Positions 682 through 31,420 of a stretch of DNA of 62,699 bases are shown one piece after another (position 1 is the stretch's first letter; every line of letters starts with the position of its first letter). Below the pieces are notes generated by a model. The model was not told where the DNA came from. It was given only the letters and a program-made list of their open reading frames with translations, and did no database searches. Source of the stretch: Bacteroidota bacterium. GTDB lineage: Bacteria; Bacteroidota; Bacteroidia; Bacteroidales; UBA4417. The stretch covers positions 1 through 62,699 of the forward strand of contig JBAXXB010000001.1 in NCBI GenBank assembly GCA_037128115.1, written 5' to 3'. Made by a program: the position numbers and the translations under genes.

Positions 682-3600
682 CTAATTTGAAGGAACATTT
701 ACAGTAGTGTTTACCATAGTTACTGAAGCAACCAGTGAGAGGGCCCTGCCATTGAGTACCGTTTGAACGGCATTGCCGGCGGTAGAGAAAGTCACTCCTG
801 AGTAAGCAATGATGGTGCCCACCATGATTCCGCCTCCGGCACCGTTAATGGTGGCTGCGGTACCTACATACCAGAACACATTCTTAGGCAAGGCTCCGTT
901 AATCAACACAATGCTGCGAGCGCCTGTAGGACCTGCAATACCTACGGTTAGGCCGGCTGCTGTCTGGAAAACCCAGGTTGCATTAGGGTCACCCTGGGCG
1001 TCCAGGGTAAGAGGTCCGTTCGATATTTTAAAAGTACCACTGGCTGATTTATATATCCCCGGGGCTAAAGTTAATCCACCCAGTTCGCCGGCACCCGGAT
1101 CAATACCACCTGGCATTGAAGCAGGCGAGATGCTGTTATAAGCTATGTTGGCATCAAGTAAGCCCTGTGTAGCGATTGCAAACGAAGTGGCCGTCCCTGG
1201 AAAAGGAGGTGCTGTGAATATACCATTCGTTACAAGACCTACATTAAGCGGAGTTTCGGTATATACATCCCCGGTCATACCATCGTGGAACCCGGTAATT
1301 AAAGTAGAGGCGGCCGTAGAGGAGATGGCTCCATGAACAACTGTATTAATACCCTGGTTCGTAACCCCTGCATTTCCACCGAAAGCTCCGAATATCGCAG
1401 CCGTTCCCAGATCAATGACGACAGGTGGAATTATACCCGAAGCAGTAGTAAAACTCCAAACATATTCAGTCAGCATTGGAACGCCGGCTATAGTAAGGGC
1501 ACCGGTAGTTATGGTACAAGTATATAAAGTATTAGCTAAAAGACTGCTTGCAGGTACAAATGTTGCAGTTGAACCGCTGAATGAAATTGTACCCCCTATA
1601 AGCGTGGTACCATGATATATGGTAAAGGTAGAGGCATTTATTGTCGACGGGTTCATCGGCGTATTAAACGTCGCGGCAATTGTTTTTGACAGATCCACAT
1701 CGGTAGCATTATCCAATGGATCGGTAGAAATGATCATGGGTGCTGAAACAGATAAAGTAGTGAAACTCCAAACATAATTATTCACCATCGGAATACCCGT
1801 GGCATTCTGTACACCGGTATTTATTGTACATGTGTAGACAGTATTTGATAAAAGTGTACTTACCGGGGCAAAAGTAGCTGTAGATCCGTTGTATGAAATT
1901 GTTCCAGCTATAGGCGTTGTACCATGGTAAACAGTAAAGTTAGAGGCATTAATTGTAGCCGGATTCATCGGCATACTGAAGGTTGCTGTAACTTGTTTTA
2001 AAAGATCTACATCCAGTGCGTTGTCGATAGGATTTGTAGTTATTACAACGGGAGCCACCAGAGGTAAAGTTGCAAAAGTCCAAACATAATTGACTGCCAT
2101 TGGCGTGCCTGCTATACTCTGCACACCGGTAGTTATGGTACAGGTATATTCAGTATTTGGAAGTAGCGTGCTCAACGGGTCAAAAGTTGCTGTTGAACCG
2201 TTGTAGGAAATTACTCCTCCTATGGGTGTTGTTCCATGATAAATGGTGAAGTTTGCTGCTATCATGGTCAAAGGATTTATCGGCATACTAAAGGTTGCAG
2301 TTACGTTCTTCAGAAGGTCAACATTCAGGGCTTTGTCGGCCGGATCCGTTAAAATGACAACGGGAGCCGATGTGGAAGTCAGAGTAGTAAATGTCCACAC
2401 ATAGTCAGATGCCAGTGGAATACCTGCCACATTTTTAGCCCCGGTGGTAACGGTAGCCGTATAGATGGTACCTGGCAAAAGATCAGTAGTTGGTGCAAAG
2501 GTTGCAACAGACCCTATGAATGATACTGTTCCGGCTACAGGCGTTGTACCCTGCTTTATGGTGAAGGTTGTGCCTGTAAGGGTCAACGGGTCCATTGGTA
2601 CACTAAATGTTGCAGTAACTTTTTTGCTGAGAATCACTCCCGTGGCAGTGTTTGCCGGGTCGGTTGAAATAACTGTCGGAGGCACAAACGATCCGGTTGT
2701 AAAAGTCCAGACATAATTACTGGTCAAGGATATTCCTGCAACATTTTTAGCCCCGGTTGTTATCGTACAAACATAAGAAGTGTTTGGTGTCAATAAAGCA
2801 GTAGGGATAAAGGATGCCGTTGCACCCGTATATGAAACAGTTCCTGCCACAGTTGTTAAACCTTGTTTAACCGTGAAGGTTAAATCAGTGAAAGTTAAGG
2901 GGTCCATTGCCATACTGAAGGTGGCTGTAACTGTTTTTCCAAGTAATACACCGATGGCATTGTTTGTAGGGTCAGTCGAAATTACGGCTGGCCCTAAAGT
3001 AGAACCGGTAGTAAATGACCACACATAATTACTTTCAAGCGTAGTGCCCGCCAGGTTTTTAGCCACAGTGGCAATGGTGGCGGTATAAACAGTATTGGGT
3101 GCCAGGTTACTGCCAGGAGTTAAAGAGGCTGTTACACCGGAATATGAAATAACTCCTGCAATTGATAAATTGCCTTGTTTTAAGGTAAAGGCAGCTGCCG
3201 TAATAGTAGCAGGATCCATTGGTATACTAAAAGTTGCTGAAACAACTTTATTAATGAACACACCGGTTTCGGCATTTACCGGGTCGGTTGTAATAACCGT
3301 AGGCGATAGGATAGCACCCGTGCTGAATGTCCACACATAATTGGTTTGCAAGGCGTTGCCCTTTAAATCTTTAATGGTCGATTTAACTGTACCCGTATAA
3401 GTTGTGTTAGGTGAGAGATTCGCAGTTGGTGCAAAGCTTAAGGTTGCATGTGTATTGTCATAGGACACAATACCTGGAACAGGGACACCCGATTTTAATC
3501 CCCCTGTTAATGTAAACGAGGACTGGGTGATTGTGACGGGATTCATCTCTTCATTGAAAGTTGCTGTAACAATCTGGTTCATGGGTACATTTGTAGCGGC

Positions 3601-3744
3601 ATTAGCAGGGTTTGTCGATTCCACAACCGGGCATACTCCAACGATTTCAACGTACTCGTCTTTTTTGCATCCGCCTATCAATGCTGCCAGTAATAAGGAG
3701 GCTACGATTGAGGTCATCCATAATCGTTTTCTTGTTGTTTTCAT
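682..3744 (-). CDS. surface lipoprotein with 7 tandem Ig-like (SbsA-Ig/Big_5-type) domains and a C-terminal DUF3494 ice-binding-like domain
   Basis: ORF 682..3828. The start is trimmed to ATG 3744 (MKTTRKRLWMTSIVASLLLAALIGGC, lipobox). The longer start would lie upstream of the predicted promoter. Seven ~105-aa units of type P-V-I-x-T-D-P...V-T-A-T-F-S-x-P-M-x-P-x-T...Y-V-W-x-F-T-T. C-terminal 247 aa (AAIFGAFGGNAGVTNQG...LNGRALS) matches the DUF3494/ice-binding family pattern. Confidence 0.85.
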   Translation of the reverse strand: MKTTRKRLWMTSIVASLLLAALIGGCKKDEYVEIVGVCPVVESTNPANAATNVPMNQIVTATFNEEMNPVTITQSSFTLTGGLKSGVPVPGIVSYDNTHATLSFAPTANLSPNTTYTGTVKSTIKDLKGNALQTNYVWTFSTGAILSPTVITTDPVNAETGVFINKVVSATFSIPMDPATITAAAFTLKQGNLSIAGVISYSGVTASLTPGSNLAPNTVYTATIATVAKNLAGTTLESNYVWSFTTGSTLGPAVISTDPTNNAIGVLLGKTVTATFSMAMDPLTFTDLTFTVKQGLTTVAGTVSYTGATASFIPTALLTPNTSYVCTITTGAKNVAGISLTSNYVWTFTTGSFVPPTVISTDPANTATGVILSKKVTATFSVPMDPLTLTGTTFTIKQGTTPVAGTVSFIGSVATFAPTTDLLPGTIYTATVTTGAKNVAGIPLASDYVWTFTTLTSTSAPVVILTDPADKALNVDLLKNVTATFSMPINPLTMIAANFTIYHGTTPIGGVISYNGSTATFDPLSTLLPNTEYTCTITTGVQSIAGTPMAVNYVWTFATLPLVAPVVITTNPIDNALDVDLLKQVTATFSMPMNPATINASNFTVYHGTTPIAGTISYNGSTATFAPVSTLLSNTVYTCTINTGVQNATGIPMVNNYVWSFTTLSVSAPMIISTDPLDNATDVDLSKTIAATFNTPMNPSTINASTFTIYHGTTLIGGTISFSGSTATFVPASSLLANTLYTCTITTGALTIAGVPMLTEYVWSFTTASGIIPPVVIDLGTAAIFGAFGGNAGVTNQGINTVVHGAISSTAASTLITGFHDGMTGDVYTETPLNVGLVTNGIFTAPPFPGTATSFAIATQGLLDANIAYNSISPASMPGGIDPGAGELGGLTLAPGIYKSASGTFKISNGPLTLDAQGDPNATWVFQTAAGLTVGIAGPTGARSIVLINGALPKNVFWYVGTAATINGAGGGIMVGTIIAYSGVTFSTAGNAVQTVLNGRALSLVASVTMVNTTVNVPSN
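1426..3630 (-). repeat. 7 x ~315-bp in-frame tandem coding repeats (Ig-like domain array)
   Basis: Residues 67-801 of the ORF-track protein divide into 7 units of ~105 aa. Units 5-7 are most alike (DVDLLK..FT[IV]YHGTT.I.G.IS[YF].GSTATF..YTCTI.TG). Units 3-4 form a second subgroup (TGAKNVAGI.L.S.YVWTFTT). Confidence 0.9.
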
Positions 3745-3760: not shown

Positions 3761-3778
3761 TGTGAATAAATTTTCACA
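3761..3778. promoter_or_regulatory. perfect palindrome TGTGAA-TAAATT-TTCACA over the predicted TSS/5' UTR of the Ig/DUF3494 gene
   Basis: Read directly: tgtgaataaattttcaca. It lies between the TTTG box (3782-3785, minus strand) and ATG 3744. Confidence 0.3.
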
Positions 3779-3781
3779 GTG

Positions 3782-3847
3782 CAAAGGACTATCATTTTGT
3801 ATCCCAAACTGTTATACAATTCTCCCAAAGAGTTACATCATTCACAC
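3782..3847 (-). promoter_or_regulatory. promoter module copy 5: 38-bp conserved motif (3847-3810) plus TTTG box 28 nt downstream
   Basis: Minus-strand GTGTGAATGATGTAACTCTTTGGGAGAATTGTATAACA. The G of TTTG is at 3782, exactly 28 nt past the motif end. It sits 66 nt upstream of ATG 3744. Confidence 0.55.
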
Positions 3848-4220
3848 ATCCCGGGTTGAGGCTGTCACGGCTTCCTGTATATAAGGATCGCATGCACGCT
3901 CTTTTTAATAAGAATTAACTTTGAAATGATTTTCTTGCTGGTCGGACATTGTTCCTGGCAAATGAAAAGAATCCTGGTCCGCTAATGATCCAGCCTCCCA
4001 AGTTTCAAGAATCGGGGTCTGCCCCGCTTTCCTTCAGGTGGATTACGGCCTGGATTTTAGAATTTGAGATGAATCGGATACCGGAGTCTAACCCCCGTGC
4101 AGAAACGCCGCCAAACAGGTAGTCGAGGCAATGCAGGTTTCAGGGATGCCGGTTCCTTTCCAAATCCTTGCAGCGGTTTCCAGGGTCAAACTATCCTGGA
4201 GTAGAGTCCCCCACAGCAAT

Positions 4221-4286
4221 GTGTGAATCATATAACTATGTTGAAAAGTTATGTAACAGAAACCAGAGTAATGAAACGGAATTTTG
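4221..4286 (+). promoter_or_regulatory. promoter module copy 1: 38-bp conserved motif plus -7-like box GAATTTTG
   Basis: GTGTGAATCATATAACTATGTTGAAAAGTTATGTAACA at 4221-4258. The G of TTTG is at 4286 (28 nt past the motif). ATG at 4338. Confidence 0.6.
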
Positions 4287-4337
4287 CAGAAATTTTTAGC
4301 TTAGGGTGAAAAGCCCTGGTGGGAATAAACCAAGAAG

Positions 4338-6767
4338 ATGCAGGAAATAAAAAAAACAACGATCCCACTGTACCGGAGCATGATAGCTTCTGTCAGGCTC
4401 CATTGCCGGTTCATACTGCACCGGATCAGCAAGCATAAATTGCTAAAAGCACTGCTAATACTGGCAGGTGTAGTTATTGTTTTTGCAGGGCTGGTAATCT
4501 TGTTTATATCACCTATTACAAAATACCTGGTCGAAAAGTATGATTTGAAATATACCGGTCGGCAGATCACCATGGACTGGGCATATGTGAACCCGTTTAC
4601 CGGCAATTTTCATTTCGAAAATCTTAAAATACATGAATATCACAGTGACAGCATTTTCCTTTCAGTAAAAGGAGTGAATGCAAATATTACCATGCGTAAA
4701 CTGTTCGCCAGGGCCTATGAAATAAGTGAGCTAACACTCAATAAACCTCAAGGTATTATTATCCAGGTTGATAAGAATCTGAATTTCGATGATCTTATCA
4801 GAAAATTTACTTCCAAAGCAGATTCTAAAAAAATCACCACACCTGTCCATTTTAGTATTCTCAGTATCAAAATTACTGACGGGGAATTTTATTACCGCGA
4901 AAGGGTTACCCCTATAAATTACTTTATCACCGGCGTAAATATCGAGATCCGGGGAATTCATTGGGATTCAGATATAATCGCTGCAAAATATTCCTTTGTG
5001 TCGGGTATTGGAAGCGGAAACATGAAGGGTGATTTTACCATCAATATTAAAACCCTGGATTACCGGCTAGCCGTCGTCGCACAGAAATTCGACCTGGAAA
5101 TCCTGGAACAATACCTGAAAGAACTGACCAACTTTGGATATTTCAACGGAAACATCGATGCGGATCTGAATGTTAAAGGCAGTTTTAATACCGCGGAGAA
5201 TGTAACGTTCAGGGGGCTGCTGGCTATCAATGATTTCCGAACCGGTAAAAAGCCAGGTGATAATTATGCCTCTTTCCAAAAGCTGACCCTGGCCATATTC
5301 GAACTCAGTCCCAAGAATCATAAATATCTTTTCGATTCGGTTTCCCTCAATAACCCATATTTCAAGTATGAGCAATATGATTACCTGGATAACCTTTCAC
5401 GTATGTTTGTTTCGGAAGCGAGCAAGGCAGAGGTTGGCCAGACCCCAGGCGCAAAATTTAACCTGGTTCTCGAAATCGGCAATTATATAAAACGGCTGTC
5501 GAAGAACTTCTTCCGAAGCAATTATAAGATCAACCGGCTCGCCATTTATAGTGGTAACCTGGAATATAGTGACTTTTCGATGAGCGAAAAACTCTCCATA
5601 CATTTAAACCCACTATATATTCTGGCTGATTCCATTACTAAGAATCGAAAAATGGTAAGCGTTTCCTTTAAATCAGGCATCATGCCCTATGGAGATGTAA
5701 CTGTAGCATTAAGTATAAATCCGAACGACAGTTCAGACTTTGATCTTGACTTCCACCTTCGAAAGATACCTGCTGCCATGTTTAATCCCTATTTGATTCA
5801 TTACACTTCCTTTCCAGTCGATAGGGGTACTCTTTCATTAAGCGGGAAATGGACTGTGCGAAACGGAAATATAAAAAGCGATAATCACCTGATCCTGATC
5901 GATCCCCGTTTAACAAAACGGGTCAAAAACAAAGAAACAAAATGGCTGCCTATGCGCCTGATTATGGCTTTTACCCGCGAGCGCGGCAATGTTATTGATT
6001 ATGAGGTTCCTATAAGCGGTGACCTGAAAAATCCGAAATTTCACCTGCATGACGTCCTTATGGATGTGCTCGGGAATATTTTTATTAAACCGGCTACCAC
6101 TCCATACCGGATGGAAGTGAAAAATACAGAAACTGAAATCGAAAAATCGCTTACCATGAAATGGCCCATGCGAAAAAGTTCACTTACCAAGGAGCAGGAA
6201 AAGTTTATCAAAAAAATGGCTGAATTCCTGGCAGACAATCCTGATGCAACTATAACGATTATGCCACAGCAGTATACCGCGAAAGAAAAAGAATACATAC
6301 TGTTTTATGAAGCTAAAAAAAAGTATTTCCGGACGGTAGCACATAGAAACGAATCGTATTTCAGCAATATAGATTCCGACAAGGTCGAAAAAATGTCGGT
6401 TAAAGATGCTCAGTTTATACGATATCTAAATATACATACAGCTGATTCAATGCTGTTTACGGTCCAGGACAAATGCACAACCTTACTTGGTGTGAGTTTT
6501 GTAGAGGCTAAATATAAACAACTGAAACATGACAGGAAAACCGCCTTTATAGCTTATTTTAAGGAGAGAAATTTGGAGAACCGGATACGATTTTCAGCTG
6601 AAAAGGACATGATTCCTTATAATGGATTTTCGTACTACCAAATCATTTACAAGGGTGAATTCCCTGACGATATCATGAAAGCCTATATTAAAATGAATGA
6701 ATTAAATGACCAGGCGCCCCGAAACCTGTTTCAAAAATACCGGAGAAAATACAAGGTCAAACAATAG
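4338..6767 (+). CDS. DUF748/AsmA-like membrane-anchored protein
   Basis: 809-aa ORF with one N-terminal TM helix (LLILAGVVIVFAGLVILFI), followed by a long beta-rich region with repeated units resembling DUF748/AsmA-type proteins. The family call is from memory only and has not been HMM-checked. Confidence 0.5.
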   Translation: MQEIKKTTIPLYRSMIASVRLHCRFILHRISKHKLLKALLILAGVVIVFAGLVILFISPITKYLVEKYDLKYTGRQITMDWAYVNPFTGNFHFENLKIHEYHSDSIFLSVKGVNANITMRKLFARAYEISELTLNKPQGIIIQVDKNLNFDDLIRKFTSKADSKKITTPVHFSILSIKITDGEFYYRERVTPINYFITGVNIEIRGIHWDSDIIAAKYSFVSGIGSGNMKGDFTINIKTLDYRLAVVAQKFDLEILEQYLKELTNFGYFNGNIDADLNVKGSFNTAENVTFRGLLAINDFRTGKKPGDNYASFQKLTLAIFELSPKNHKYLFDSVSLNNPYFKYEQYDYLDNLSRMFVSEASKAEVGQTPGAKFNLVLEIGNYIKRLSKNFFRSNYKINRLAIYSGNLEYSDFSMSEKLSIHLNPLYILADSITKNRKMVSVSFKSGIMPYGDVTVALSINPNDSSDFDLDFHLRKIPAAMFNPYLIHYTSFPVDRGTLSLSGKWTVRNGNIKSDNHLILIDPRLTKRVKNKETKWLPMRLIMAFTRERGNVIDYEVPISGDLKNPKFHLHDVLMDVLGNIFIKPATTPYRMEVKNTETEIEKSLTMKWPMRKSSLTKEQEKFIKKMAEFLADNPDATITIMPQQYTAKEKEYILFYEAKKKYFRTVAHRNESYFSNIDSDKVEKMSVKDAQFIRYLNIHTADSMLFTVQDKCTTLLGVSFVEAKYKQLKHDRKTAFIAYFKERNLENRIRFSAEKDMIPYNGFSYYQIIYKGEFPDDIMKAYIKMNELNDQAPRNLFQKYRRKYKVKQ

Positions 6768-6929
6768 TAAGCTGTCAACTCAGGCTCACCGGGCCAAATC
6801 CTAAAGGCGAACCTTTTTATTAACATCATACTAATTGATATTCTGATCATTAGCCGCATATTACCTTTCATTGAGGCTGAGAAATCAGAAATGATGGCTA
6901 GTTAAGTTGCATCCACAACCTCAGCCGAA

Positions 6930-6995
6930 GTGTGAATCATGTAACTAATTCAAAAAGTTCTGTAATACTTTACCAATCATACCAATGCATCTTTG
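6930..6995 (+). promoter_or_regulatory. promoter module copy 2: 38-bp conserved motif plus -7-like box CATCTTTG
   Basis: GTGTGAATCATGTAACTAATTCAAAAAGTTCTGTAATA at 6930-6967. The G of TTTG is at 6995 (28 nt past the motif). ATG at 7128. Confidence 0.6.
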
Positions 6996-7127
6996 CTCCA
7001 GGAATTTCCGGGGGAAAAGATACTACGTTAAACAACCTTTTTCACAACCTGTACATAAGGTTTTAACCGGGTAAGGTCTTGAGTCTTTACTATTAATCCG
7101 GTCATTTTTACAATACAAGCATGCTAA

Positions 7128-7922
7128 ATGGCAATTTTAACCCACAGGAAGCACCTGTTTTCAAAAGGTACCGATTTGTTTTTTACAGGTGTCAGCAGCG
7201 CCTATAAATTTAGCGCGTTGTTTTTCAAAGAAGCCTTCAAAAAACCTTTTCACCTCCGCGAAGTCATAAACCAATGCTTCGAAGTAGGCTTAAAATCGCT
7301 GGCATTGATAACGCTTACGGGTTTTATTGTCGGAATCGTATTCACCAAGCAATCGCGTCCCTCGCTCGAAGATTTCGGCGCAACCTCCTGGCTTCCTTCC
7401 CTGATTGGCATAGCTATTGTCAGGGCATTGGGGCCCCTGGTAACTGCGCTTATCTGCGCGGGTAAAGTCGGTTCCAGTATAGGTGCGGAACTGGGTTCCA
7501 TGAAAGTAACCGAGCAGATTGATGCCATGGAAGTATCGGCTATTAATCCTTTTAAGTACCTGGTAGTCACCCGGGTGATCGCTACTACAATCACCATACC
7601 TGTTCTGGCATTGTATTGCAGTTTTGTCGGGCTTATGGGTTCGTTTGTAAATGTACACAGCGAGGAATCCATGAGCCTTATCACCTTCTATCAAAGTGCA
7701 TTTTCAAGCATCAGCTTCCTCGATATTTTTACTTCTGTTTCCAAATCGCTGGCTTATGGTTTTACAATTGGCATGGTAGGAGCGTACAAAGGATTTAATG
7801 CCACCCAGGGTACCCGTGGGGTGGGCAAAGCAGCGAATCAGGCGGTGGTACTTGCCATGTTCCTCATTTTCCTTGAGGAACTCATCATTGTACAGGTAGC
7901 CAACTGGATCAGATATTTTTAA
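7128..7922 (+). CDS. mlaE: MlaE-family ABC transporter permease (set 1)
   Basis: 264 aa. Hallmark GPLVTALICAGKVGSSIGAELGSMKVTEQIDAMEV, and multi-TM. Confidence 0.9.
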   Translation: MAILTHRKHLFSKGTDLFFTGVSSAYKFSALFFKEAFKKPFHLREVINQCFEVGLKSLALITLTGFIVGIVFTKQSRPSLEDFGATSWLPSLIGIAIVRALGPLVTALICAGKVGSSIGAELGSMKVTEQIDAMEVSAINPFKYLVVTRVIATTITIPVLALYCSFVGLMGSFVNVHSEESMSLITFYQSAFSSISFLDIFTSVSKSLAYGFTIGMVGAYKGFNATQGTRGVGKAANQAVVLAMFLIFLEELIIVQVANWIRYF

Positions 7923-7923
7923 G

Positions 7924-8703
7924 ATGATGAAAAAAAATAGTCAACATATTGCAAACAAGAAGGAGCTGGCGATTTCCATCAGCGGGCTATATAAGTCGTT
8001 CGCTGAATTACACGTTTTAAAAGGCATTGATTTTCATCTTTTTAAAGGAGAGAATGTGGCTGTGCTCGGAAAATCAGGTACCGGGAAATCGGTATTGATA
8101 AAAATTATAGTGGGTCTGCTCAAGCCCGACAAAGGTGAAGTGATAGTGCTGGGAGAACACGTTGACAAACTGGCCCGCAAAGAGCTGGATGCCTTGCGGT
8201 TGCGCATCGGGTTTTCGTTCCAGAGCAGTGCCTTGTACGACAGTATGAATGTGTTCCAGAATCTCGCCTTCCCTTTAACCATGAACAGGAAAAGCCTTAC
8301 TAAACAGGATATTAAAGAGGCTGTCGAAGAAGTGCTGGAAGCAGTTGGGCTAAGTTCTAAAATAAACGAACTGCCCTCTGATCTTTCGGGAGGGCAACGC
8401 AAGCGAATCGGCATCGCAAGGACTTTAATCCTGAAACCCGAAATCATGTTGTACGACGAACCCACCTCGGGCCTCGACCCGGTTACAAGTGCCGAAATCA
8501 TTCAGCTAATCAATGAAGTGCAACAGAAATACAATACCAGTTCAGTCATTATAACCCACGATCTCACCTGTGCTAAAAACACGGGCAATCGTATTGCCAT
8601 GCTGCACGACGGCAGGTTTCTAAAAGTCGGGACTTTTAAAGAAGTATTCGATACGGACAATGAGCAGATAAAAGGATTCTTCAATTACAATTTTATACAA
8701 TAA
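7924..8703 (+). CDS. mlaF: MlaF-like ABC transporter ATP-binding protein (set 1)
   Basis: Walker A GKSGTGKS, signature LSGGQRKR, Walker B MLYDEPTSGLD. Starts 1 nt after the mlaE stop. Confidence 0.9.
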   Translation: MMKKNSQHIANKKELAISISGLYKSFAELHVLKGIDFHLFKGENVAVLGKSGTGKSVLIKIIVGLLKPDKGEVIVLGEHVDKLARKELDALRLRIGFSFQSSALYDSMNVFQNLAFPLTMNRKSLTKQDIKEAVEEVLEAVGLSSKINELPSDLSGGQRKRIGIARTLILKPEIMLYDEPTSGLDPVTSAEIIQLINEVQQKYNTSSVIITHDLTCAKNTGNRIAMLHDGRFLKVGTFKEVFDTDNEQIKGFFNYNFIQ

Positions 8704-8706
8704 GCC

Positions 8707-9684
8707 ATGAATGATTCACCTAACAGGCACGCCATATTAGTGGGCTTTTTCGTCAGCATAGGAATACTATTCTTTGTTGGTGGAATCCTCATGGTTGGTA
8801 ACCTGCATGAGACTTTTAAACAAAAAATGGAAGTAATTTCCCTGTTTAATGATGTAAACGGCCTGCAAAAAGGGAATAATATCTGGTTTTCGGGTGTTAA
8901 AATAGGGACGGTGAGCAGTGTTCATTTTTATGGAAAATCGCAGGTGCAGGTCCTGATGAAGATTGAGACTAAGGCCCAGCAATATATTCGCAAAGACGCG
9001 AAGGTTAAAATAAGCAGCGACGGAATCATAGGGAATAAAATACTGATTATTTACGGCGGCTCACCCGGGTTTGCCGAAGTACAGGACGGGGACACCCTTA
9101 ACGTGGAAAAGACATTTTCGACAGAAGATATGATTAATACCCTTCAGGAAAACAATAAAAACTTCCTGGCCATCACCACCGATTTTAAAGTAATCAGCAA
9201 GAGCCTGGCAGCGGGTGAAGGCACTATCGGGAAATTACTTAAAGACGATGCAGTTTATACTAACATCAATGCTGCCACGGCTTCGCTCAGGCTTGCCTCA
9301 GTAAAGGCTGATCAGTTAATAGGTTCACTCGGCACCTTCAGTAAAGGGCTGAATAAAAAAGGAACTCTGGCGAATGAATTAACAACCGACACCTTGGTTT
9401 TCAATTCTGTAAAAGCTTCGGTTTTTCAATTGCAAAAAATGGCTGACACGGCTTCTTTGTTTATAACCAATCTGAAAAAGGCAGGCAGCAATCCCAATAC
9501 TACGGTAGGTATACTGCTTCACGATGAAGAATCGGGTGCCCGCCTGAAAGAAACCATTAAAAACCTGGAAAGCAGTTCTGTGAAGTTAAACCAGGACCTG
9601 GAAGCCGCACAGCAAAATATATTGCTCAGGGGATTTTTCAGGAAGAAAGCCAAAGCCGCCAGTACCGATTCCATCGGTCATTAA
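8707..9684 (+). CDS. mlaD: MlaD/MCE-domain protein (set 1)
   Basis: N-terminal TM helix, then an MCE-like beta core (FNDVNGLQKGNNIWFSGVKIGTV), a long helical C-terminus and a KAKAA tail. Tightly packed after mlaF. Confidence 0.85.
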   Translation: MNDSPNRHAILVGFFVSIGILFFVGGILMVGNLHETFKQKMEVISLFNDVNGLQKGNNIWFSGVKIGTVSSVHFYGKSQVQVLMKIETKAQQYIRKDAKVKISSDGIIGNKILIIYGGSPGFAEVQDGDTLNVEKTFSTEDMINTLQENNKNFLAITTDFKVISKSLAAGEGTIGKLLKDDAVYTNINAATASLRLASVKADQLIGSLGTFSKGLNKKGTLANELTTDTLVFNSVKASVFQLQKMADTASLFITNLKKAGSNPNTTVGILLHDEESGARLKETIKNLESSSVKLNQDLEAAQQNILLRGFFRKKAKAASTDSIGH

Positions 9685-9730
9685 TAAAATACCCTTAGGA
9701 TTATTATCCATTCAAAGGGTCTGCCCCCAC

Positions 9731-9796
9731 GTGTGAAGCATGTAACTTAATTCAAAAGTTATGTAATGCTGTGGCAGGCAAACCCCTATACTTTTG
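9731..9796 (+). promoter_or_regulatory. promoter module copy 3: 38-bp conserved motif plus perfect -7 box TACTTTTG
   Basis: GTGTGAAGCATGTAACTTAATTCAAAAGTTATGTAATG at 9731-9768. The G of TTTG is at 9796 (28 nt past the motif). Confidence 0.65.
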
Positions 9797-9885
9797 TATA
9801 TAAATTATACTGCACAGATAAGCAGTTTTTTACCTCAGAAAAACAAAAATCCTTATCCGGAGCAAAAAAACAAAACACAGACGAC

Positions 9886-10758
9886 ATGCCATCAATCAAG
9901 AAATTTAATCCTGTAATACCTGTAAAAAAGGCCATTCCCAAGATCCGGCATGCCACAGTACAGTCAATGAGCAGGCTAAGTGAAAAAACCCTGGCAAAGA
10001 CTGAAGAAGCAAATAGTTTTCTGACTGATTTTGCAGATGTTATCTTGTTTATCGCACAAATCTTCAGAGCAACATTTTCCCGCGACTTCGAATTTAAAGA
10101 ATTCCTGCGTCAATGTTACCAGATCGGGAATAAGGCCCTCCCACTGATCTCAGTCACCGGGATCATTATGGGACTGGTTCTTACTATTCAATCACGTCCT
10201 GCACTTGTTACTTTCGGAGCTGTGACCTTGCTTCCGGGCATGGTTACGGTATCGCTAATCCGGGAAATGGGGCCCGTAATTACGGCACTTATTTGCGCGG
10301 GGAAAATCGGGTCCGGGATGGGAGCTGAATTAGGCTCGATGAAAGTGACCGAACAGATTGACGCCATGGAAGTCTCGTCGACGAATCCCATGAGATTCCT
10401 GGTTGTCACCCGCGTGTTGGCCGCAACGCTGATGATACCTTTCCTGGTTTTATATGCCGACGCGCTGGGGATACTGGGAAGTTGGGCAGGAGCAAACCTG
10501 AAAGGTGAAGTATCCTTTACCTTGTTTTTCTCCCAGGCTTTCAGCCATATCCGGTTTATTGACTTCCTGCCGGCCTTCATTAAGACTTTCTTTTTTGGTG
10601 CAGTTATCGGGCTGGTTGGCTGTTATAAGGGTTACTATGCAGGCCGTGGAACCGAAAGCGTTGGCATAGCCGCTAATTCAGCGGTAGTATTGGCTTCCCT
10701 CCTTGTGCTGGTGGTTGATGTAATTGCAGTACAAATAACTGATATGCTGGTATTATGA
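9886..10758 (+). CDS. mlaE: MlaE-family ABC transporter permease (set 2)
   Basis: ORF 9766..10758 trimmed to ATG 9886, because the track start overlaps the promoter motif. Hallmark GPVITALICAGKIGSGMGAELGSMKVTEQIDAMEV. Confidence 0.85.
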   Translation: MPSIKKFNPVIPVKKAIPKIRHATVQSMSRLSEKTLAKTEEANSFLTDFADVILFIAQIFRATFSRDFEFKEFLRQCYQIGNKALPLISVTGIIMGLVLTIQSRPALVTFGAVTLLPGMVTVSLIREMGPVITALICAGKIGSGMGAELGSMKVTEQIDAMEVSSTNPMRFLVVTRVLAATLMIPFLVLYADALGILGSWAGANLKGEVSFTLFFSQAFSHIRFIDFLPAFIKTFFFGAVIGLVGCYKGYYAGRGTESVGIAANSAVVLASLLVLVVDVIAVQITDMLVL

Positions 10759-11540
10759 GCATTCCGAAGGCAGATACCCAGGTGACAGGCACCGGTAAAA
10801 AGGAGGTCGACGAAGCAGTTGTTGAAATCAACAACCTGAAGAAATCGTTTGGTACGCAGCAGGTTTTGATTGACGTGTCGTTGAAACTCTACCAGGGTGA
10901 AAACCTGGTGGTCCTTGGCAAGTCGGGCAGCGGAAAATCGGTACTGGTAAAATGCATAGTCGGCTTACTGAATTCGGATGGCGGTTCTATCGACGTTTTC
11001 AGGAAAAACGTCCTGGAAATGAACGACAAAGAATTGGGCGAATTACGTCAAAAAGTCGGCTTCCTGTTTCAAAGCGGCGCTTTGTACGATTCCATGACCG
11101 TGAAACAAAACCTGGAATTCCCCCTGAGGCGGATAAAAAGAGATCTCTCAGAAATCCAAATCAACGCCAAAGTAGCCGAAGTTCTCGAAAATGTCGGGCT
11201 GGCTGATGCTTTGAATAAAATGCCGGCACAACTTTCGGGAGGCATGCGAAAACGGATCAGCCTGGCCCGCACACTCATCGTGGATCCCCGGATTATGCTT
11301 TATGATGAACCTACAACAGGCCTCGATCCCGTTACATCGGATGAGATAAGTTCACTCATGAACGAAATCCGCGAAAAATACCATACCTCATCCATCATTA
11401 TCACGCATGATATAAAGTGTGCCAAAAATACGGCCAACCGCATGATCATGCTCCAGGAAGGTGCGGTTTACATGGAGGGAACAGCAGCCGAATTCGAAAA
11501 TTCATCCGACCCGCAGATCAGGGCTTTCTTCAAATGGTAA
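10755..11540 (+). CDS. mlaF: MlaF-like ABC transporter ATP-binding protein (set 2)
   Basis: Walker A GKSGSGKS, signature LSGGMRKR, Walker B MLYDEPTTGLD. ATGA overlap with the mlaE stop. Confidence 0.9.
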   Translation: MSIPKADTQVTGTGKKEVDEAVVEINNLKKSFGTQQVLIDVSLKLYQGENLVVLGKSGSGKSVLVKCIVGLLNSDGGSIDVFRKNVLEMNDKELGELRQKVGFLFQSGALYDSMTVKQNLEFPLRRIKRDLSEIQINAKVAEVLENVGLADALNKMPAQLSGGMRKRISLARTLIVDPRIMLYDEPTTGLDPVTSDEISSLMNEIREKYHTSSIIITHDIKCAKNTANRMIMLQEGAVYMEGTAAEFENSSDPQIRAFFKW

Positions 11541-12301
11541 CAGATAATTACAATTTAAAATCAAAATCAGCCATGGATTCACATACTCAAAAATTCAAAG
11601 TGCGCCTCGGCCTCTTCGTTGCCGGGGGACTGGCTCTATTTGTACTGGCCGTATTTATTATCGGGAAGCAGAAAAACCTGTTTAACCCGGTATTTAAGTT
11701 AACAGCCACTTTTTATAACGTGGGCGGCCTGCAGGTTGGAAATAATATCCGGTTTTCGGGTATCAACGTGGGAACTATAGATAATATATTCATTATCAAC
11801 GATTCAACGGTAAGGGTTGATATGCTCGTCAAACAGGAAGTGAAGAAATTCATAAAGTCGGACTGCGAAGTAGCCATTGGCTCGGAGGGGCTGATTGGGG
11901 ACAGGCTGTTAATCATTACCCAGGGTAGTTCAGCAGCCGCCGTAGTGAAAGAAGGTGAGCGTCTTGCATCAACAGAGCCCATAGAAACAGATGCCATTAT
12001 GGCCAGTTTGCAGGTTTCGGCTAGCAATGCGGAAATTATCACCCAGCAGCTGGCCTATATAATGATTAAAATAAACAGCGGAAAAGGAACACTCGGCAAA
12101 TTAATACAAGACTCAACCATAGCGGGGAACTTAAACCAAACTATTGTGAATCTTAAACAGAGTTCCAAAGGCCTGGACGAAAACATGAATGCAGCCAAAC
12201 ACAGTATTCTTTTCAAAGGCTATTTTAACCGTAAGGCTAAAGCTGCCGAAAAAAAGAAGGATGACTCCAACCAGAAAAAAACAGAAGACGGCAAGAAATA
12301 A
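11534..12301 (+). CDS. mlaD: MlaD/MCE-domain protein (set 2)
   Basis: ORF 11417..12301 trimmed to ATG 11534 (overlaps the mlaF stop; alternative ATG 11573). TM helix LGLFVAGGLALFVLAVFII, MCE core FYNVGGLQVGNNIRFSGINVGTI, and a KAKAA lysine-rich tail like set 1. Confidence 0.8.
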   Translation: MVTDNYNLKSKSAMDSHTQKFKVRLGLFVAGGLALFVLAVFIIGKQKNLFNPVFKLTATFYNVGGLQVGNNIRFSGINVGTIDNIFIINDSTVRVDMLVKQEVKKFIKSDCEVAIGSEGLIGDRLLIITQGSSAAAVVKEGERLASTEPIETDAIMASLQVSASNAEIITQQLAYIMIKINSGKGTLGKLIQDSTIAGNLNQTIVNLKQSSKGLDENMNAAKHSILFKGYFNRKAKAAEKKKDDSNQKKTEDGKK

Positions 12302-12363
12302 AAGTAAATATAAAATTTGCGATACCTGGAATCACATGGTAACACAAACATATTCATCCCTAT

Positions 12364-14211
12364 ATGCAAAAGTGGTTAAAACTTTCTACCATTCTTATGC
12401 TTGTTTCATTGCTGACGAGCAACTTAACTTTTGCCCAACTACCTACACTAAAAACTGATTCAACTCATATTTATAAAAACATCGAGGCATATTCCGGGCG
12501 AAGGAAGTATACCCGCCTGGTTTACCTTCTCATCTTCAACCCGGCCGCGAAAAGCCGGGATGGCAAAGAAATAAAAAATACACCTCACAAGAGACTGATA
12601 TACAGATCATACGCTACCTATGAAGGGAAACACATAAGGTATATTATTATCCAGACACTGGATCCTTTTGGTTATTCAATAGCCGATACCAACTATAGCC
12701 CACAGTACTATTTGCCACGAACAGGCAATAAGCTGCATGTAAAATCCCAGCCCATTGCCATCCGCAACTTGTTGCTGATCAGGCAGAATCAAATTTTCGA
12801 CTCTTTACTGGTCAAAGAATCGGAGCGCCTTATACGAAGTCAGAGGTATGTACGTGATGTTTCATTCCAGGTAAATGCCGTTCCTGGCAGTATCGACTCT
12901 GTTGATATTCTAATACGTGAAATGGATAACTGGAGTATAGTTCCTGCAGGAGCTGCGTCTGCTTCACATGTCAATGTTAACCTGCTGGACAGGAACTTTA
13001 TGGGATTAGGACATGAATTCCAGAACGATGTGGCATGGAACCGCACTTCAGGCAACTATGCATATAGCACAAGATATTTTGTTCCAAATATAGTTAACAC
13101 CTATATTAACAGCACTTTACATTATGGATCAGACGAATCCGGGAATTTTAGAAAAAGCATAGATATTAACCGGCCGTTTTTCTCACCTTTTGCCAGATGG
13201 GCAGCAGGAATCAACCTGACAAAGCAAAACCGCCGGGATTATGTCTACACGTATGATTCTCTTTATTTACTAAGCCGATTAAAATTTAATGCCCAGGATT
13301 TCTGGGTAGGAGATGCAGTTCAACTGTTTAAGGGCAACACCGAAAATAGTCGTTCAACTAATTTCATTACTGGAATACGATATTACCGTATCCGTTATCT
13401 TGAAAAACCAGCCGATGTGCCAGGTACACAGAATATATATTCAAATGAGAATTTATATTTGGCAAGCATTGGCATATCCACGCGAACATACCTGCAGGAC
13501 AGGTATATTTTCAAGTATGGGGTGCCCGAAGATATCCCTGTAGGGCGCGCTTTTAGCCTGACCGGAGGCTACCAGGGAAAAAATAATTCGGGCCGTTTTT
13601 ACCTGGGGGCACGTATTTCAGTCGGTTACTATTACCCGTGGGGCTACCTGGGCTCGAATTCAGAAATCGGGACTTTTTTGGCGAAATCGAAAGCCGAGCA
13701 AGGCACAGCCTCGGTGAGTGCAGTGTATTTTACTCCTCTTCTTGAAATCGGTGTATGGAAAATCAGGCAATTTATCAAGCCACAGCTTATCATCGGCATA
13801 AACCGATTCGCTGCCGATTCACTTACACTGAACGATGGATATGGAATCGACGGGTTTAACAGCATTGCCCTTACGGGCAGCAGCCGCCTGCTTTTTACCG
13901 TGCAAACCCAATCCTATTCACCCTGGAATGTACTGGGGTTCCATTTTGGCCCGTTTATCAATTATTCTTTTGGCGTCCTGGGCAATACCTCTTCCGGGTT
14001 CAAAAACAGTAACATATTCTCGCAAATAGGACTGGGCGTACTCATCAAGAACGAAAACCTGGTAATCAATTCCTTTCAAATATCTTTTGCTTTTTACCCT
14101 GCTATCCCCGGAACAGGAATTAATGTTTTGAAAATGAATACACTAAGAACTTCCGATTTCGGTCTCAGGGATTTCGAAATCGGAAAACCGGCTATAGTAG
14201 TATATCAGTAG
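12364..14211 (+). CDS. POTRA-containing Omp85/BamA-family-like outer-membrane protein
   Basis: Signal peptide MQKWLKLSTILMLVSLLTSNLTFAQ. POTRA-like segment (VKESERLIRSQRYVRDVSFQV...DSVDILIREMDNW), then LLDRNFMGLGHEF and a long Tyr/Gly-rich beta region. 62 nt after mlaD with no intervening motif. Confidence 0.6.
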   Translation: MQKWLKLSTILMLVSLLTSNLTFAQLPTLKTDSTHIYKNIEAYSGRRKYTRLVYLLIFNPAAKSRDGKEIKNTPHKRLIYRSYATYEGKHIRYIIIQTLDPFGYSIADTNYSPQYYLPRTGNKLHVKSQPIAIRNLLLIRQNQIFDSLLVKESERLIRSQRYVRDVSFQVNAVPGSIDSVDILIREMDNWSIVPAGAASASHVNVNLLDRNFMGLGHEFQNDVAWNRTSGNYAYSTRYFVPNIVNTYINSTLHYGSDESGNFRKSIDINRPFFSPFARWAAGINLTKQNRRDYVYTYDSLYLLSRLKFNAQDFWVGDAVQLFKGNTENSRSTNFITGIRYYRIRYLEKPADVPGTQNIYSNENLYLASIGISTRTYLQDRYIFKYGVPEDIPVGRAFSLTGGYQGKNNSGRFYLGARISVGYYYPWGYLGSNSEIGTFLAKSKAEQGTASVSAVYFTPLLEIGVWKIRQFIKPQLIIGINRFAADSLTLNDGYGIDGFNSIALTGSSRLLFTVQTQSYSPWNVLGFHFGPFINYSFGVLGNTSSGFKNSNIFSQIGLGVLIKNENLVINSFQISFAFYPAIPGTGINVLKMNTLRTSDFGLRDFEIGKPAIVVYQ

Positions 14212-14255
14212 GATAAAAATATTGTCAGCCTTCGCTTTTGCTGCAGTTAGCCCAT

Positions 14256-14321
14256 GTGTGAATGATATAACTTTTAGCAAAAGTTATATAACACTTGTTT
14301 GAGCCCAGCATGTTAGTTTTG
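14256..14321 (+). promoter_or_regulatory. promoter module copy 4: 38-bp conserved motif plus perfect -7 box TAGTTTTG
   Basis: GTGTGAATGATATAACTTTTAGCAAAAGTTATATAACA at 14256-14293. The G of TTTG is at 14321 (28 nt past the motif). ATG at 14398. Confidence 0.65.
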
Positions 14322-14397: not shown

Positions 14398-15945
14398 ATG
14401 AAAACTTCGCTACTGCTAGTCCTTTTCCTGGTACTTGCCCAGTTACTTTCCGCCCAAAATACGAAGGCACCCGACTCGATAATACCTGCTAAAGGGAATA
14501 CCGACAAACAATTGGAAAAAATTATAGAGACCAAAACTGCCAGGCATTCCGATTCACTGGGAAATGAGCCAAAAAAGAGCGCACTCATCGATACTACCAT
14601 CCAGAATAAATACGGGGATCTGCTTAACGATGACACTGCATACAATTTAAGGCACCCAATCTGGAAACCTTCATTACAGGTGCTGGGTGCCGTGGTTCTG
14701 ACCTGGTCGATTGACAGGCTTATTCTGAACGCTGACTATGCCCATATAGGGATTGCATCGTGGAAATATAATATGAAATATGGCTGGGAATGGGACAATG
14801 ATCGTTTCGGGGTGAACTTCGTGGGCCACCCCTATTCCGGGACGCTTTCCTATAATGCAGCTCGGTCGAACGGATATAATTTTTACCAGTCCATTCCTTT
14901 TGCCGTTGCCGGAAGCCTGATGTGGGAATATTTCGGGGAAAATACACGCCCTTCCTGCAACGATATAATCAATACACCCGTCAGCGGGGTGTTTCTGGGT
15001 GAAATCCTGTATCGCTTAAGCTCGAATATCTTAGATGATAGGACGAAAGGGACAAACCGGGTGCTGAGGGAAATCGCGGCTGGCATAATCGATCCTATGC
15101 GGGGTTTTAACCGCCTGATGCAGGGAAAATGTTCCAGGGTCACCAACGTGGAAGTTTATCAGAAGGAGCCTCTTAATATTTCCCTGTATTCAGGTCTGCA
15201 CAGGAAAAACACCGGCACAAGCATTTCGAGCGGTACCGGAACCAACAGCATGATGGTGAATGCACAGTTCGATTACGGGAATCCTTTCGAGATCCGTAAA
15301 CGTAAGCCCTTCGATTTTTTCAAACTCCGGGTCGATTTGGATTTTGGAGTAGGACGAAAATTCCTGGATGATATAACCGGTTATGGAATACTGTTTGGCA
15401 AAAACAGGCAAATCGGCAATCTGGCCATCCTGGTCGGGGGATTCCAGTATTATGATTATATGGATAATATGACCTTTGAGCTTGGAACCATCGGTTTGGG
15501 TGGCGGGTTGTTCACAAAACTTCCAATCAATTCAAGTATAGACCTTTACACGAACCTCCACCTGGCACTAGTACCTTTTGCTGGGAACAGCACCCGGTTT
15601 GGCCCTGACACTTCGCAACTAAGAGACTATAATTACGGTGCCGGGTTAGAAGGAAAGTTTGAAAGCATAATAAATCTGGGTAAATTTGCAACAGCTTCAC
15701 TGATCTATTACTATTATATGGTTCACACCTACGTGGGTGCACCTGGTAATAATATCATCAGTATTCTAAAACCAAGAGTAACTGTAAAACTGTTCAAACA
15801 ACTAAGCCTGGGCTTTGAGCATTTCATTTATTTCAACGACCGCTACCTCGACGATTTTTCCGCTATTCATTCGGTACGGACCGAACAGAAAATATTTCTT
15901 CAACTTTACCTGGAAGATAAACAACGCAAAGGACATTACAATTAA
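14398..15945 (+). CDS. DUF3943-like secreted/outer-membrane protein
   Basis: Signal peptide MKTSLLLVLFLVLAQLLSAQ. The segment FGVNFVGHPYSGTLSYNAARSNGY resembles the DUF3943 HP-motif region. The C-terminal half is beta-rich. Confidence 0.55.
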   Translation: MKTSLLLVLFLVLAQLLSAQNTKAPDSIIPAKGNTDKQLEKIIETKTARHSDSLGNEPKKSALIDTTIQNKYGDLLNDDTAYNLRHPIWKPSLQVLGAVVLTWSIDRLILNADYAHIGIASWKYNMKYGWEWDNDRFGVNFVGHPYSGTLSYNAARSNGYNFYQSIPFAVAGSLMWEYFGENTRPSCNDIINTPVSGVFLGEILYRLSSNILDDRTKGTNRVLREIAAGIIDPMRGFNRLMQGKCSRVTNVEVYQKEPLNISLYSGLHRKNTGTSISSGTGTNSMMVNAQFDYGNPFEIRKRKPFDFFKLRVDLDFGVGRKFLDDITGYGILFGKNRQIGNLAILVGGFQYYDYMDNMTFELGTIGLGGGLFTKLPINSSIDLYTNLHLALVPFAGNSTRFGPDTSQLRDYNYGAGLEGKFESIINLGKFATASLIYYYYMVHTYVGAPGNNIISILKPRVTVKLFKQLSLGFEHFIYFNDRYLDDFSAIHSVRTEQKIFLQLYLEDKQRKGHYN

Positions 15946-15979
15946 AATGATTACTGACTATATAAAAAAGCAATAAAGT

Positions 15980-17660: not shown

Positions 17661-17670
17661 TTCTATCCAA

Positions 17671-18603: not shown

Positions 18604-18637
18604 TGGTTGAGGTTTTGTGTTTCTTTGAACCGTAGTG

Positions 18638-27659: not shown

Positions 27660-27713
27660 TTTTTAGTACCCAAAGATAATCCATCTTCAACTTTTTGGTA
27701 TAACAAAAAAGGG

Positions 27714-30734: not shown

Positions 30735-31306
30735 TACTGTAAATATAGGTAACCTTTTTTATCGGATGGCAATTTTCCTTGTTTCATACACAATTTGCAA
30801 TGTTACAGGGCGAAGCTACTCTAGGAAATCCCGGTTCCTCCCAGGGTTGAAGAAACGCAAAACCAATTCGGGCTGTAAGATTTCCTTTTATAGAAGATCG
30901 AACCGAGACTGAGAATTGCATGAGAATGACCGGAGTGCTTTTACCACTGCCAGCTTACTCCATAAAAGCTCTTTGAAAACATCAGATGCACAAATTTACC
31001 TGCCAAATTCCATATTGCTTAACGCTGTCTTTCAGTATTTGCTCGTCGGAAGCAGGTTTTCCGCCAAAACCCTTAAATCACGGTTTGCTCAAAGAACAGC
31101 TTTTCACTGTCGATACTGTCTAAGTGTTCGTGCCTATTCTGATTGTCTGGGAGGATCTCAGGATTTCTTAACTTGAATGTGATAAAAACTTCCTGAATAT
31201 CTACGACAGCTATAGGTTTGATATTCTGCATTATATGAAACCGGCAAACACCATAAATAAAGCGAGCTGCAAGGAAAAACCTGCAGCCCGCATCACTAAT
31301 ATTATG

Positions 31307-31412: not shown

Positions 31413-31420
31413 ATTCGATG

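Follow-up and report, generated by a model that had tools for sequence, protein, structure and literature searches.

A phylum-wide promoter-like element of the Bacteroidota and a candidate AraC-type regulator paired with a hybrid kinase

In the AraC (I1-I2), XylS, and RhaS systems, two protomers occupy direct repeats that lie 21 bp apart, with the proximal one abutting the −35 element and contacting RNA polymerase. Here, we analyze an element that resembles such sites: a 38-bp motif present in five copies within a 62,699-nt stretch of DNA (the window; contig JBAXXB010000001.1, positions 1 to 62,699, of the Bacteroidales assembly GCA_037128115.1), each copy pointing at a gene and followed at a fixed distance by a box that resembles the −7 promoter element of the phylum. 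The predicted system is of a known kind: an activator-dependent promoter class of the AraC/XylS type whose regulator controls its own gene. As in the class II promoters of AraC, RhaS, XylS, and MelR, the site is built of direct repeats arranged in tandem at a 21-bp period; its proximal repeat would abut the −35/−33 position and the whole site would lie at about −70 to −33; the candidate regulator has an AraC-type domain with two helix-turn-helix (HTH) units; and the regulator gene carries the site itself, implying autoregulation. The differences are that the N-terminal ∼75 aa of the candidate contain no cupin-type ligand domain, that its gene stands in an operon with a PAS hybrid histidine kinase, that the core promoter is of the Bacteroidota −7 type, and that an extra distal TGTGAA lies 9 bp from the first TGTAAC. 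In addition, binding and activation are predicted for the system described here. The element, the regulator subfamily, the obligatory pairing with a PAS hybrid kinase, and the phylum-wide conservation appear to be undescribed. We found no published description of the motif or of an AraC-type stress regulon in the Bacteroidota in open-access full text, where absence is no proof of novelty.

Other described systems share some of these features. The small AraC-type proteins MarA, SoxS, and Rob act at many scattered promoters, are autoregulated, bind an asymmetric ∼20-bp site at a strict distance and orientation to the core promoter, and have envelope- and stress-centred targets; MarA has been reported to activate mlaFEDCB. 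In contrast to the site studied here, which is 38–41 bp long, highly conserved, and bipartite, MarA and SoxS bind as monomers to a degenerate 20-bp box, and the DNA-binding domains of MarA, SoxS, and Rob share only ∼18–22% identity with that of the candidate regulator, which belongs to another phylum and sigma context. The hybrid two-component systems of Bacteroides likewise join a sensor kinase, a receiver, and an AraC-type DNA-binding domain in gene activation, but there a single fused membrane protein carries all of these domains and serves one polysaccharide utilization locus, whereas here we find a separate receiver-less AraC-type protein, a PAS-rich kinase, and a large, phylum-wide putative regulon. 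Promoters of LytTR regulators (AgrA, ComE, BlpR) also carry a pair of direct repeats, spaced by ∼21 bp, just ahead of the core promoter, and the regulator–kinase operon is autoregulated; however, no LytTR gene is associated with the present element, the repeat sequence is unrelated, and the regulator is AraC-type. Finally, the primary sigma factor of the Bacteroidota reads TAnnTTTG at −7 and TTTG at −33 (PMC7366714). The box downstream of our motif keeps the A and the TTTG of this −7 element at a fixed place, but the T of TA is unconserved and C is preferred at both n positions, TGTAACA stands where TTTG would be at −33, and a long conserved upstream element is obligatory.

The five copies in the window are described by GTGTGAAnnATnTAACT-N9-ARTTnTRTAAY. 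A pattern search with GTGTGAANNATNTAACT gives exact matches at 4221 (+), 6930 (+), 9731 (+), 14256 (+), and 3847 (−). With up to two mismatches allowed, seven matches are seen against 0.47 expected, a number reached by none of 100 shuffles; the two mismatched ones, at 15712 (−) and 20925 (−), lie inside coding DNA without the second motif half and were rejected as chance. A position weight matrix (PWM) of 70 columns was derived from 140 instances found in other genomes. It gives the five copies 50–60 bits, while the rest of the 62.7-kb window stays below 8 bits and yields no sixth copy. Four copies lie on the plus strand: copy 1 (4221–4258, 55.4 bits), with the −7-like box GAATTTTG at 4279–4286, heads a DUF748/AsmA-like gene; copy 2 (6930–6967, 59.8 bits), with CATCTTTG at 6988–6995, heads a first mlaE-mlaF-mlaD set; copy 3 (9731–9768, 50.3 bits), with TACTTTTG at 9789–9796, heads a second mlaEFD set; and copy 4 (14256–14293, 54.8 bits), with TAGTTTTG at 14314–14321, heads the genes for a DUF3943 protein and a PAP2 phosphatase. 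Copy 5 (GTGTGAATGATGTAACTCTTTGGGAGAATTGTATAACA, 3810–3847, 59.3 bits) lies on the minus strand, as does its box, GTCCTTTG at 3782–3789, the G of which is 28 nt past the motif; it heads a lipoprotein gene with seven Big_5 domains and an Ice_binding domain. Outside the 38-bp motif and the TTTG, the five regions are unalignable.

An earlier, sequence-only reading of the window had picked out these copies, and their coordinates are reproduced here as exact pattern matches. The invariance that it described at motif positions 1–7, 10–11, and 13–17 holds in all five copies, the TRTAAY direct repeat is present at 11–16 and 32–37 in each, and the five 8-mers ending in TTTG read as given, with the final G at 4286, 6995, 9796, 14321, and 3782, exactly +28 in every case. 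An inverted repeat, TAACT...AGTTA, had been noted as well. It is present in four of the five window copies and is not kept elsewhere: C16 is nearly invariant and G28 occurs in about one-third of the copies, and the C16-G28 pair is formed in about one-third.

Close relatives of the source organism differ in copy 3. At motif position 8 (window 9738), the window has G and a near-identical public metagenome-assembled genome (MAG) contig (L201, from GCA_964430525.1) has T at its position 12611, a natural promoter variant that shifts the score from 50.3 bits in the window to 55.6 bits in L201; T is found at this position in 128 of the 140 copies of other genomes. On L201, a sixth motif copy occurs at 1285–1322 (−), about 1.55 kb to the left of the window start. 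It is the best-scoring copy, at 72 bits, and heads genes for a 189-aa secreted and a 178-aa outer-membrane-like protein. With L201 included, the island comprises six motif promoters in ∼17 kb, five of them within the window.

The element is widespread in the phylum. We scanned one genome per species (185,579 species) with the pattern TGTGAANNATNTAAC-N10-ANTTNTRTAAY, derived from the five copies, and took loci of 8–12 kb. At least 120 genome stretches carry the element, a lower bound, and those listed are all from the Bacteroidota, one of them labelled only “FCB group”; they span at least six orders, among them the Bacteroidales, Chitinophagales, Flavobacteriales, Cytophagales, Saprospirales, and Sphingobacteriales, and Sunxiuqinia indica, Maribellus maritimus, and Flavobacterium sandaracinum are among the cultured organisms that carry the element. 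Across 140 instances, conservation is seen at positions that the pattern does not fix, namely an AAT just 5′ of position 1 and G1, T8, G12, T17, T19-T20, and A38, as well as downstream of the motif at A60 (123 instances), C62 (99), T63 (138), T64 (137), T65 (117), and G66 (88). The resulting consensus of ∼41 bp is AAt-GTGTGAAT-n-ATGTAACT-(t/c)TT-N6-A(A/G)TT-n-TGTAACA, and it contains three related hexamers: TGTGAA at 2–7, TGTAAC at 11–16, and TGTAAC at 32–37. Self-similarity of the frequency matrix peaks at offsets of 21 (11.1) and 9 (10.8), with all other offsets between 2.6 and 8.8. Footprinting of orthologous mlaE and DUF748 promoters, an approach proposed with the sequence-only reading, finds the motif kept and the flanks diverged: the mlaE orthologue promoters in six other genomes and the promoter of the DUF748 orthologue in a Paludibacter MAG (L055) retain motif and box between flanks that cannot be aligned. 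Nor is the element dispersed, in keeping with that reading. There is no other copy in the window, and the genome-scan pattern gives only 4 matches in 2.9 million viral contigs.

The spacing between motif and box is conserved along with the motif. For this comparison, 124 copies from other genomes were picked by a pattern that excludes the downstream box. The G of a TTTG falls at +28 in 75 of them and at +27 in 7, and every other offset accounts for 4 or fewer. Because the phase is fixed at +28 in other genomes, the phasing is no accident of the five sequences. At this 28-nt distance, both the 140 instances and a set sampled independently of the pattern, by way of the regulator gene described below, give a motif-specific box consensus, nA(c)CTTTG. 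The proposal that the boxes are TAnnTTTG −7 elements is borne out in part, as the A and the TTTG are conserved and the leading T is not a conserved feature of this promoter class. The box of copy 5 had been considered to agree only in its TTTG; GTCCTTTG is in fact near the motif-specific consensus nAcCTTTG. No TTTG is found at −33, where the positions 19–21 nt upstream of the box read TAACA(c), and the proximal TGTAAC lies ∼21–22 nt upstream of the −7-like box. The copies are oriented toward the downstream gene, as had been suggested for the window: in 80 of the 124 copies, an open reading frame (ORF) on the same strand begins no more than 150 nt downstream, versus a divergent ORF in 15. ORF starts lie about 25–70 nt past the box, the commonest box-to-ATG distance being ∼36 nt. 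The co-occurrence of motif and box at a fixed spacing throughout the phylum supports the suggestion of an activator site, or a replacement for the −33 element, that is locked to the −7 box.

The genes that directly follow the motif point to a candidate for the protein that binds it. When the first ORFs downstream were clustered, a ∼185-aa HTH_18/AraC protein was the sole recurrent DNA-binding family, and tblastn finds homologues, mostly with 60–76% identity, in 24 of 120 8-kb motif loci. We also sampled in the reverse direction, using a protein alignment (A2) to fetch the 80 metagenome loci that match it best; relatives are encoded in at least 572 of the 600 candidate stretches listed in that metagenome scan. 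Motifs in these regulator loci were called with the PWM at a threshold of 22 bits, which gives 133 matches in 499 kb of regulator loci versus 0 in 3 Mb of shuffled sequence. Among the 76 regulator genes with enough upstream sequence, 47 have a motif on their own strand 60–400 nt upstream, most commonly at −90 to −96 from the ATG (about 92 nt). Loci sampled by way of the regulator gene yield the same logo as the pattern-sampled instances. The protein is itself strongly conserved, with a mean column identity of 71–73% across orders (73% in A2), and a very conserved protein fits an invariant site. It matches PF12833 (1e-16) and PF00165, and the fold of its C-terminal half matches AraT, YesN, AdpA, MarA, SoxS, and Rob in the PDB; sequence and fold comparisons with the PDB alike identify a generic AraC domain only. 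The AlphaFold model, with a predicted local distance difference test score (pLDDT) of 71, has seven C-terminal helices. The N-terminal ∼75 aa correspond to no Pfam family, and we found no specific NCBIfam or Pfam model for the regulator or for its N-terminal part.

The regulator gene has a regular neighbor. A large ORF begins 5–60 nt after it, and all 37 of the long ones tested encode PAS/HisKA kinases, with HATPase in 35, REC in 33, a C-terminal HPt-like segment, and ∼70% identity in the core. The conserved order of the unit is thus motif, AraC-type regulator, PAS hybrid kinase. On the strength of its genomic linkage to the motif, the AraC-type protein is probably the cognate regulator.

Some of these units have additional features. 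In the hybrid kinases of L121–L192 (alignment A4), a variable number of tandem ∼23-aa repeats (EKEKRAAEL-IANKEL-FQN), coiled-coil-like in character, lies between the PAS domains, and a few kinases have CHASE3 or CheB-CheR N-terminal modules in place of these repeats. Two to three regulator paralogues are present in 10 of the 80 regulator-sampled loci. Where regulator paralogues stand in tandem, or where a different gene comes next, the upstream regulator gene ends in a stop codon that overlaps the following motif copy (...GAA AAT GTG TGA = E N V stop), as seen in L082 (2118–3274), L031 (509–1079), L065, L113, L023, and L068.

Conservation, phasing, orientation, and genomic linkage are all observed directly in these loci, and they suggest a type of promoter that depends on an activator and is in use throughout the Bacteroidota, with each copy as its upstream half. 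If nA(c)CTTTG is the −7 element, transcription would start a few nucleotides past the box G (position 66). On this reading, the element would cover roughly −70 to −33; its two halves would be centred near −62 and −41, and TGTAACA would stand in place of the −33 TTTG. The ∼185-aa AraC/HTH_18 protein would bind there, probably as two DNA-binding domains on the tandem half-sites 21 bp apart, with the proximal protomer touching RNA polymerase in the manner of AraC, RhaS, and XylS at class II promoters. It would activate its own operon, including the PAS-HisKA-HATPase-REC hybrid kinase, and, together with that kinase, a regulon of surface, outer-membrane, lipid-transport, and stress proteins. Within the island, such control would co-regulate the Big_5/Ice-binding lipoprotein, the DUF748/AsmA-like protein, the two MlaEFD sets with a 615-aa protein, and DUF3943 with PAP2, and the sixth promoter outside the window would add two small secreted or outer-membrane proteins. 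In this scheme we infer binding and activation, and likewise where transcription starts and in which direction the regulation runs. That the copies consist of an activator site plus a core promoter is, in our judgment, highly probable; to the full scheme, a phylum-wide activator-dependent promoter bound by the AraC-type regulator, we would assign a probability of roughly 0.68.

Several points weigh against this scheme. The sampling is biased, as an exact pattern taken from the five copies served to select the genomes and the metagenome set comprises the 80 best matches to a single alignment, and everything said of function comes from comparative genomics. The T of TAnnTTTG is not conserved (T in 45 and C in 54 of the 140 instances), and the missing TTTG at −33 is by itself no proof of activator dependence, as the −33 element is reported to be undetectable in Flavobacterium johnsoniae (PMC7366714). 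The AlphaFold model of the regulator is only moderately confident. A motif at 60–400 nt upstream is missing from 29 of the 76 regulator genes; some of these have one further upstream, which suggests longer operons. The regulator gene is absent from the window (tblastn E > 4) and from L201, which reaches 2.9 kb further left, and would have to lie elsewhere in the source genome. Finally, the regulator has no receiver domain and is nevertheless paired with a hybrid kinase, which means that an unlinked response regulator could be the true binder.

This last point leads to the alternative that survives best, though we consider it unlikely: a response regulator encoded elsewhere, of the LytTR or NarL type for example, is phosphorylated by the hybrid kinase and binds the motif, and the AraC-type gene and the kinase are members of the regulon. 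When all ORFs of 200 loci were clustered, no DNA-binding response regulator recurred near the motif or the regulator gene, the large “receiver” cluster being heterogeneous and mostly made up of kinases, and the AraC-type protein was the only recurrent DNA-binding family in the motif loci. The kinase does have a REC domain and a C-terminal HPt-like region, whereas the AraC-type protein lacks a receiver, and LytTR regulators are known for direct repeats of 21-bp period upstream of −35. A LytTR promoter was indeed our first guess from the 21-bp direct repeat, and it was dropped when no LytTR or other response-regulator gene was found to recur near the motif. The window also encodes a NarL-type regulator with a Y_Y_Y kinase, at 27024–30734, but this pair has no motif nearby and does not recur. 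NarL-type sites, moreover, are usually inverted repeats, whereas two major-groove-sized hexamers that are 9 bp apart and repeated at 21 bp suit the two-HTH domain of an AraC-type protein. The published work on RgzAB of F. johnsoniae deals with a single-domain response regulator that is unrelated.

The AraC-type protein might also bind as a repressor or dual regulator, with promoters that run on the −7 box alone and an element that only modulates them. The rigid 28-nt phase and the −70 to −33 position are typical of RNA polymerase contact, whereas repressor sites usually overlap −10/+1 and vary in position; given this placement, repression is less likely than activation, and we regard the idea as improbable. 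What speaks for it is that many AraC-family proteins are dual regulators, that a second palindrome covers the predicted start in ∼10% of the promoters (described below), implying repression somewhere in the system, and that some Bacteroidota can dispense with a −33 element or show none that is detectable (PMC7366714). The −7 boxes, however, are off consensus at the T, as expected of promoters that need help.

It is very unlikely that the whole is the promoter of an alternative sigma factor, with TGTAACA as −35, CTTTG as −10, and no separate activator. TGTAAC is like the −35 of some extracytoplasmic function (ECF) sigma factors, Bacillus sigma-X for example, and ECF sigma factors are numerous in the Bacteroidota (PMC7366714, PMC13472631), but the spacing is wrong: from TGTAAC (ending at position 37) to the conserved A60 there are 22 nt versus 16–17 nt in ECF promoters, with positions 54–58 unconserved. 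The downstream box resembles the −7 element of the primary sigma factor, no sigma-factor gene is recurrent in the loci, and conservation reaches 30 bp further upstream, through GTGTGAAT and the second TGTAAC, which a sigma factor alone could not read. Scarcely any weight is left for a dispersed repeat (miniature inverted-repeat transposable element), a structured RNA, or a target of RNA-guided transcription by dCas12f-sigmaE, in which no promoter motif is needed, the start lies 46 bp from the target-adjacent motif, the target begins with G, the targets are mostly susCD, and the system is linked to rpoE-dcas12f (PMC13472631): several near-identical copies do lie within 10 kb, four of five with a short inverted repeat, and a start at a fixed distance from a G is a shared trait, but conservation is limited to the 38–41-bp element and the box between unrelated flanks, the element is intergenic and oriented toward genes, viral contigs hold just the 4 matches, no Rfam family matches the motif at the gathering score, the putative TAACT/AGTTA stem shows no covariation, no rpoE/dcas12f-type genes recur in the loci, a conserved box stands at +21 to +28, and the implied start is ∼69 nt from position 1.

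We next turn to the genes that the AraC-type regulator would control. Over 289 motif-headed genes, the regulator itself is the most frequent target (53), a count inflated by sampling on that gene. Big_5/Ice-binding proteins form the second most frequent family (31), followed by OmpA lipoproteins (25), several small lipoprotein families (13, 10, 7, and 6), MlaE (8), and outer-membrane β-barrels (7). Smaller groups include DUF6600, YtxH, PAP2, Dps-type ferritin, BrkB/YihY, GH130, DUF3108, and a cupin-like family. Small coiled-coil lipoproteins and CheB-CheR-PAS kinases are also recurrent among the first ORFs downstream, and the genes for a ribosome hibernation factor (HPF) and an AI-2E transporter recur in motif loci. 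By a crude test, a signal-peptide-like N-terminus is found in 152 of 236 non-regulator targets, compared with 327 of 900 control ORFs. The label of an envelope regulon, given from the window, is a fair one for the window itself; the wider set adds Dps, YtxH, HPF, cupins, and the regulator–kinase operon and looks like a combined envelope and general stress programme.

A bolder extension can be offered tentatively, as a possibility that we would not favor at present: the motif, the AraC-type protein, and the PAS hybrid kinase might constitute a general stress and envelope-remodelling regulon of the Bacteroidota, from the Bacteroidales to the Chitinophagales and Flavobacteriales. Built on a transcription factor, such a regulon would be the counterpart of RpoS, sigma-B, or EcfG and would co-regulate Dps, YtxH, the ribosome hibernation factor, OmpA-type lipoproteins, Mla, AsmA-like proteins, and surface Ig/ice-binding-like proteins, and the kinase would control the receiver-less regulator by an undescribed mechanism. 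Transcriptional control in the Bacteroidota is poorly mapped beyond polysaccharide utilization loci and a few ECF sigma factors, and we know of no general stress or envelope regulon defined for the phylum. The present analysis yields a scannable ∼41-bp cis-element with a phased −7 box, a candidate regulator family with its kinase partner, and a first list of targets that includes the envelope-lipid genes for Mla, AsmA-like, and PAP2 proteins. The element also helps annotation by marking promoters and correcting over-long starts, as at 3828 and 9766 in the window, and could become a portable inducible promoter for engineering in the Bacteroidota.

Those two starts belong to the genes behind copies 5 and 3. 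The Big_5 ×7 plus Ice_binding (DUF3494) protein is encoded at 682–3744 (−), with ATG 3744 (or 3717) as its likely start; the TTG at 3828 falls inside motif copy 5, with ATG 3744 in frame. Likewise, the ATG at 9766 is made up of the last 3 nt of motif copy 3, and the next in-frame start is 9886. Because both fall within a motif copy, the starts at 3828 and 9766 are judged over-long, consistent with the sequence-only reading, and the ATGs at 3744 and 9886 fit the predicted transcription start sites. In the public gene calls on L201, the Big_5/Ice_binding gene begins at the position that corresponds to 3717, a 33-aa ORF spans the copy 5 promoter (L201 6665–6766), and the second MlaE (L201 12639–13631) is given the long, 330-aa start.

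The remaining genes of the island lie on the plus strand, and Pfam supports most of the identities proposed for them. The 809-aa DUF748/AsmA-like protein is encoded at 4338–6767, its ATG 52 nt after the box. The first mlaEFD set occupies 7128–9684, with MlaE at 7128–7922, the ABC ATPase at 7924–8703, and MlaD at 8707–9684. The second set, together with the gene for the 615-aa protein, occupies 9886–14211, with MlaE2 from its likely ATG at 9886, the ABC ATPase at 10755–11540, MlaD2 ending at 12301, and the 615-aa protein at 12364–14211. The last of these had been called Omp85-like, which Pfam does not support: no match is obtained for it even at E = 10. The DUF3943 protein (14398–15945) and the PAP2 phosphatase (15980–16840) make up the final unit, at 14398–16840. 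Sorting domains of the type IX secretion system and the nearest relatives assign the window to the Bacteroidota, probably to the Prolixibacteraceae; among the fetched loci, the best DNA match to the window is L116, with 73.5% over mlaEFD.

To the right of the island, the window holds motif-free genes: lipid-related, OmpA-type, and TPR genes, cargo of the type IX secretion system, a polysaccharide synthesis cluster, and hybrid kinases. At 17007–19348 (−), a lipid-modifying cluster adjoins the motif island without a motif of its own; its genes, for a HAD hydrolase, a DAGK/YegS-type lipid kinase, and an acyltransferase, run convergently toward the PAP2 gene. The NarL/LuxR-type response regulator and the Reg_prop/Y_Y_Y HisKA_3 kinase mentioned above are encoded on the minus strand (27024–30734). 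Two more hybrid kinases, at 31934–35560 (+) and 42532–45657 (−), one of them containing CHASE4, are also close to the island. Neither the NarL-type pair nor these two kinases have a motif copy, and none is recurrent in other motif loci. The sole Rfam and ARAGORN matches in the window are a tRNA-Thr-CGT and a tRNA-Pro-CGG at 31306–31494 (−).

A second conserved element, GTGAAAAT-nn-ATTCAC(AA), is found in the leaders of some motif promoters, and the bases of its “loop” are conserved as well. In the window, it sits as GTGAAAATnnATTCAC in the leader of copy 5, where the palindrome GTGAAAATTTATTCAC at 3762–3777 (−) begins 4 nt past the box, on or beside the predicted transcript start. The palindrome is present in 35 of 352 motif promoters versus 6 of 4020 random 50-nt windows, and in 27 of the 35 carriers (L022, L041, L060, and L104 among them) it lies exactly 4 nt after the G of the TTTG. 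It is enriched before Big_5/Ice_binding genes, with 11 of 31 preceded by it. Its role may be that of an operator at the start site, or it may form a 5′-terminal mRNA hairpin. Read on the opposite strand, its right half (TGTGAAT) is similar to the main motif's distal hexamer. In L045, L059, L069, L073, L093, and L106, the leaders of genes for lipoproteins of ∼147–150 aa have the palindrome followed by a second conserved block that is hairpin-like, ACTGTnCCGCCAGnnGCGGnAA.

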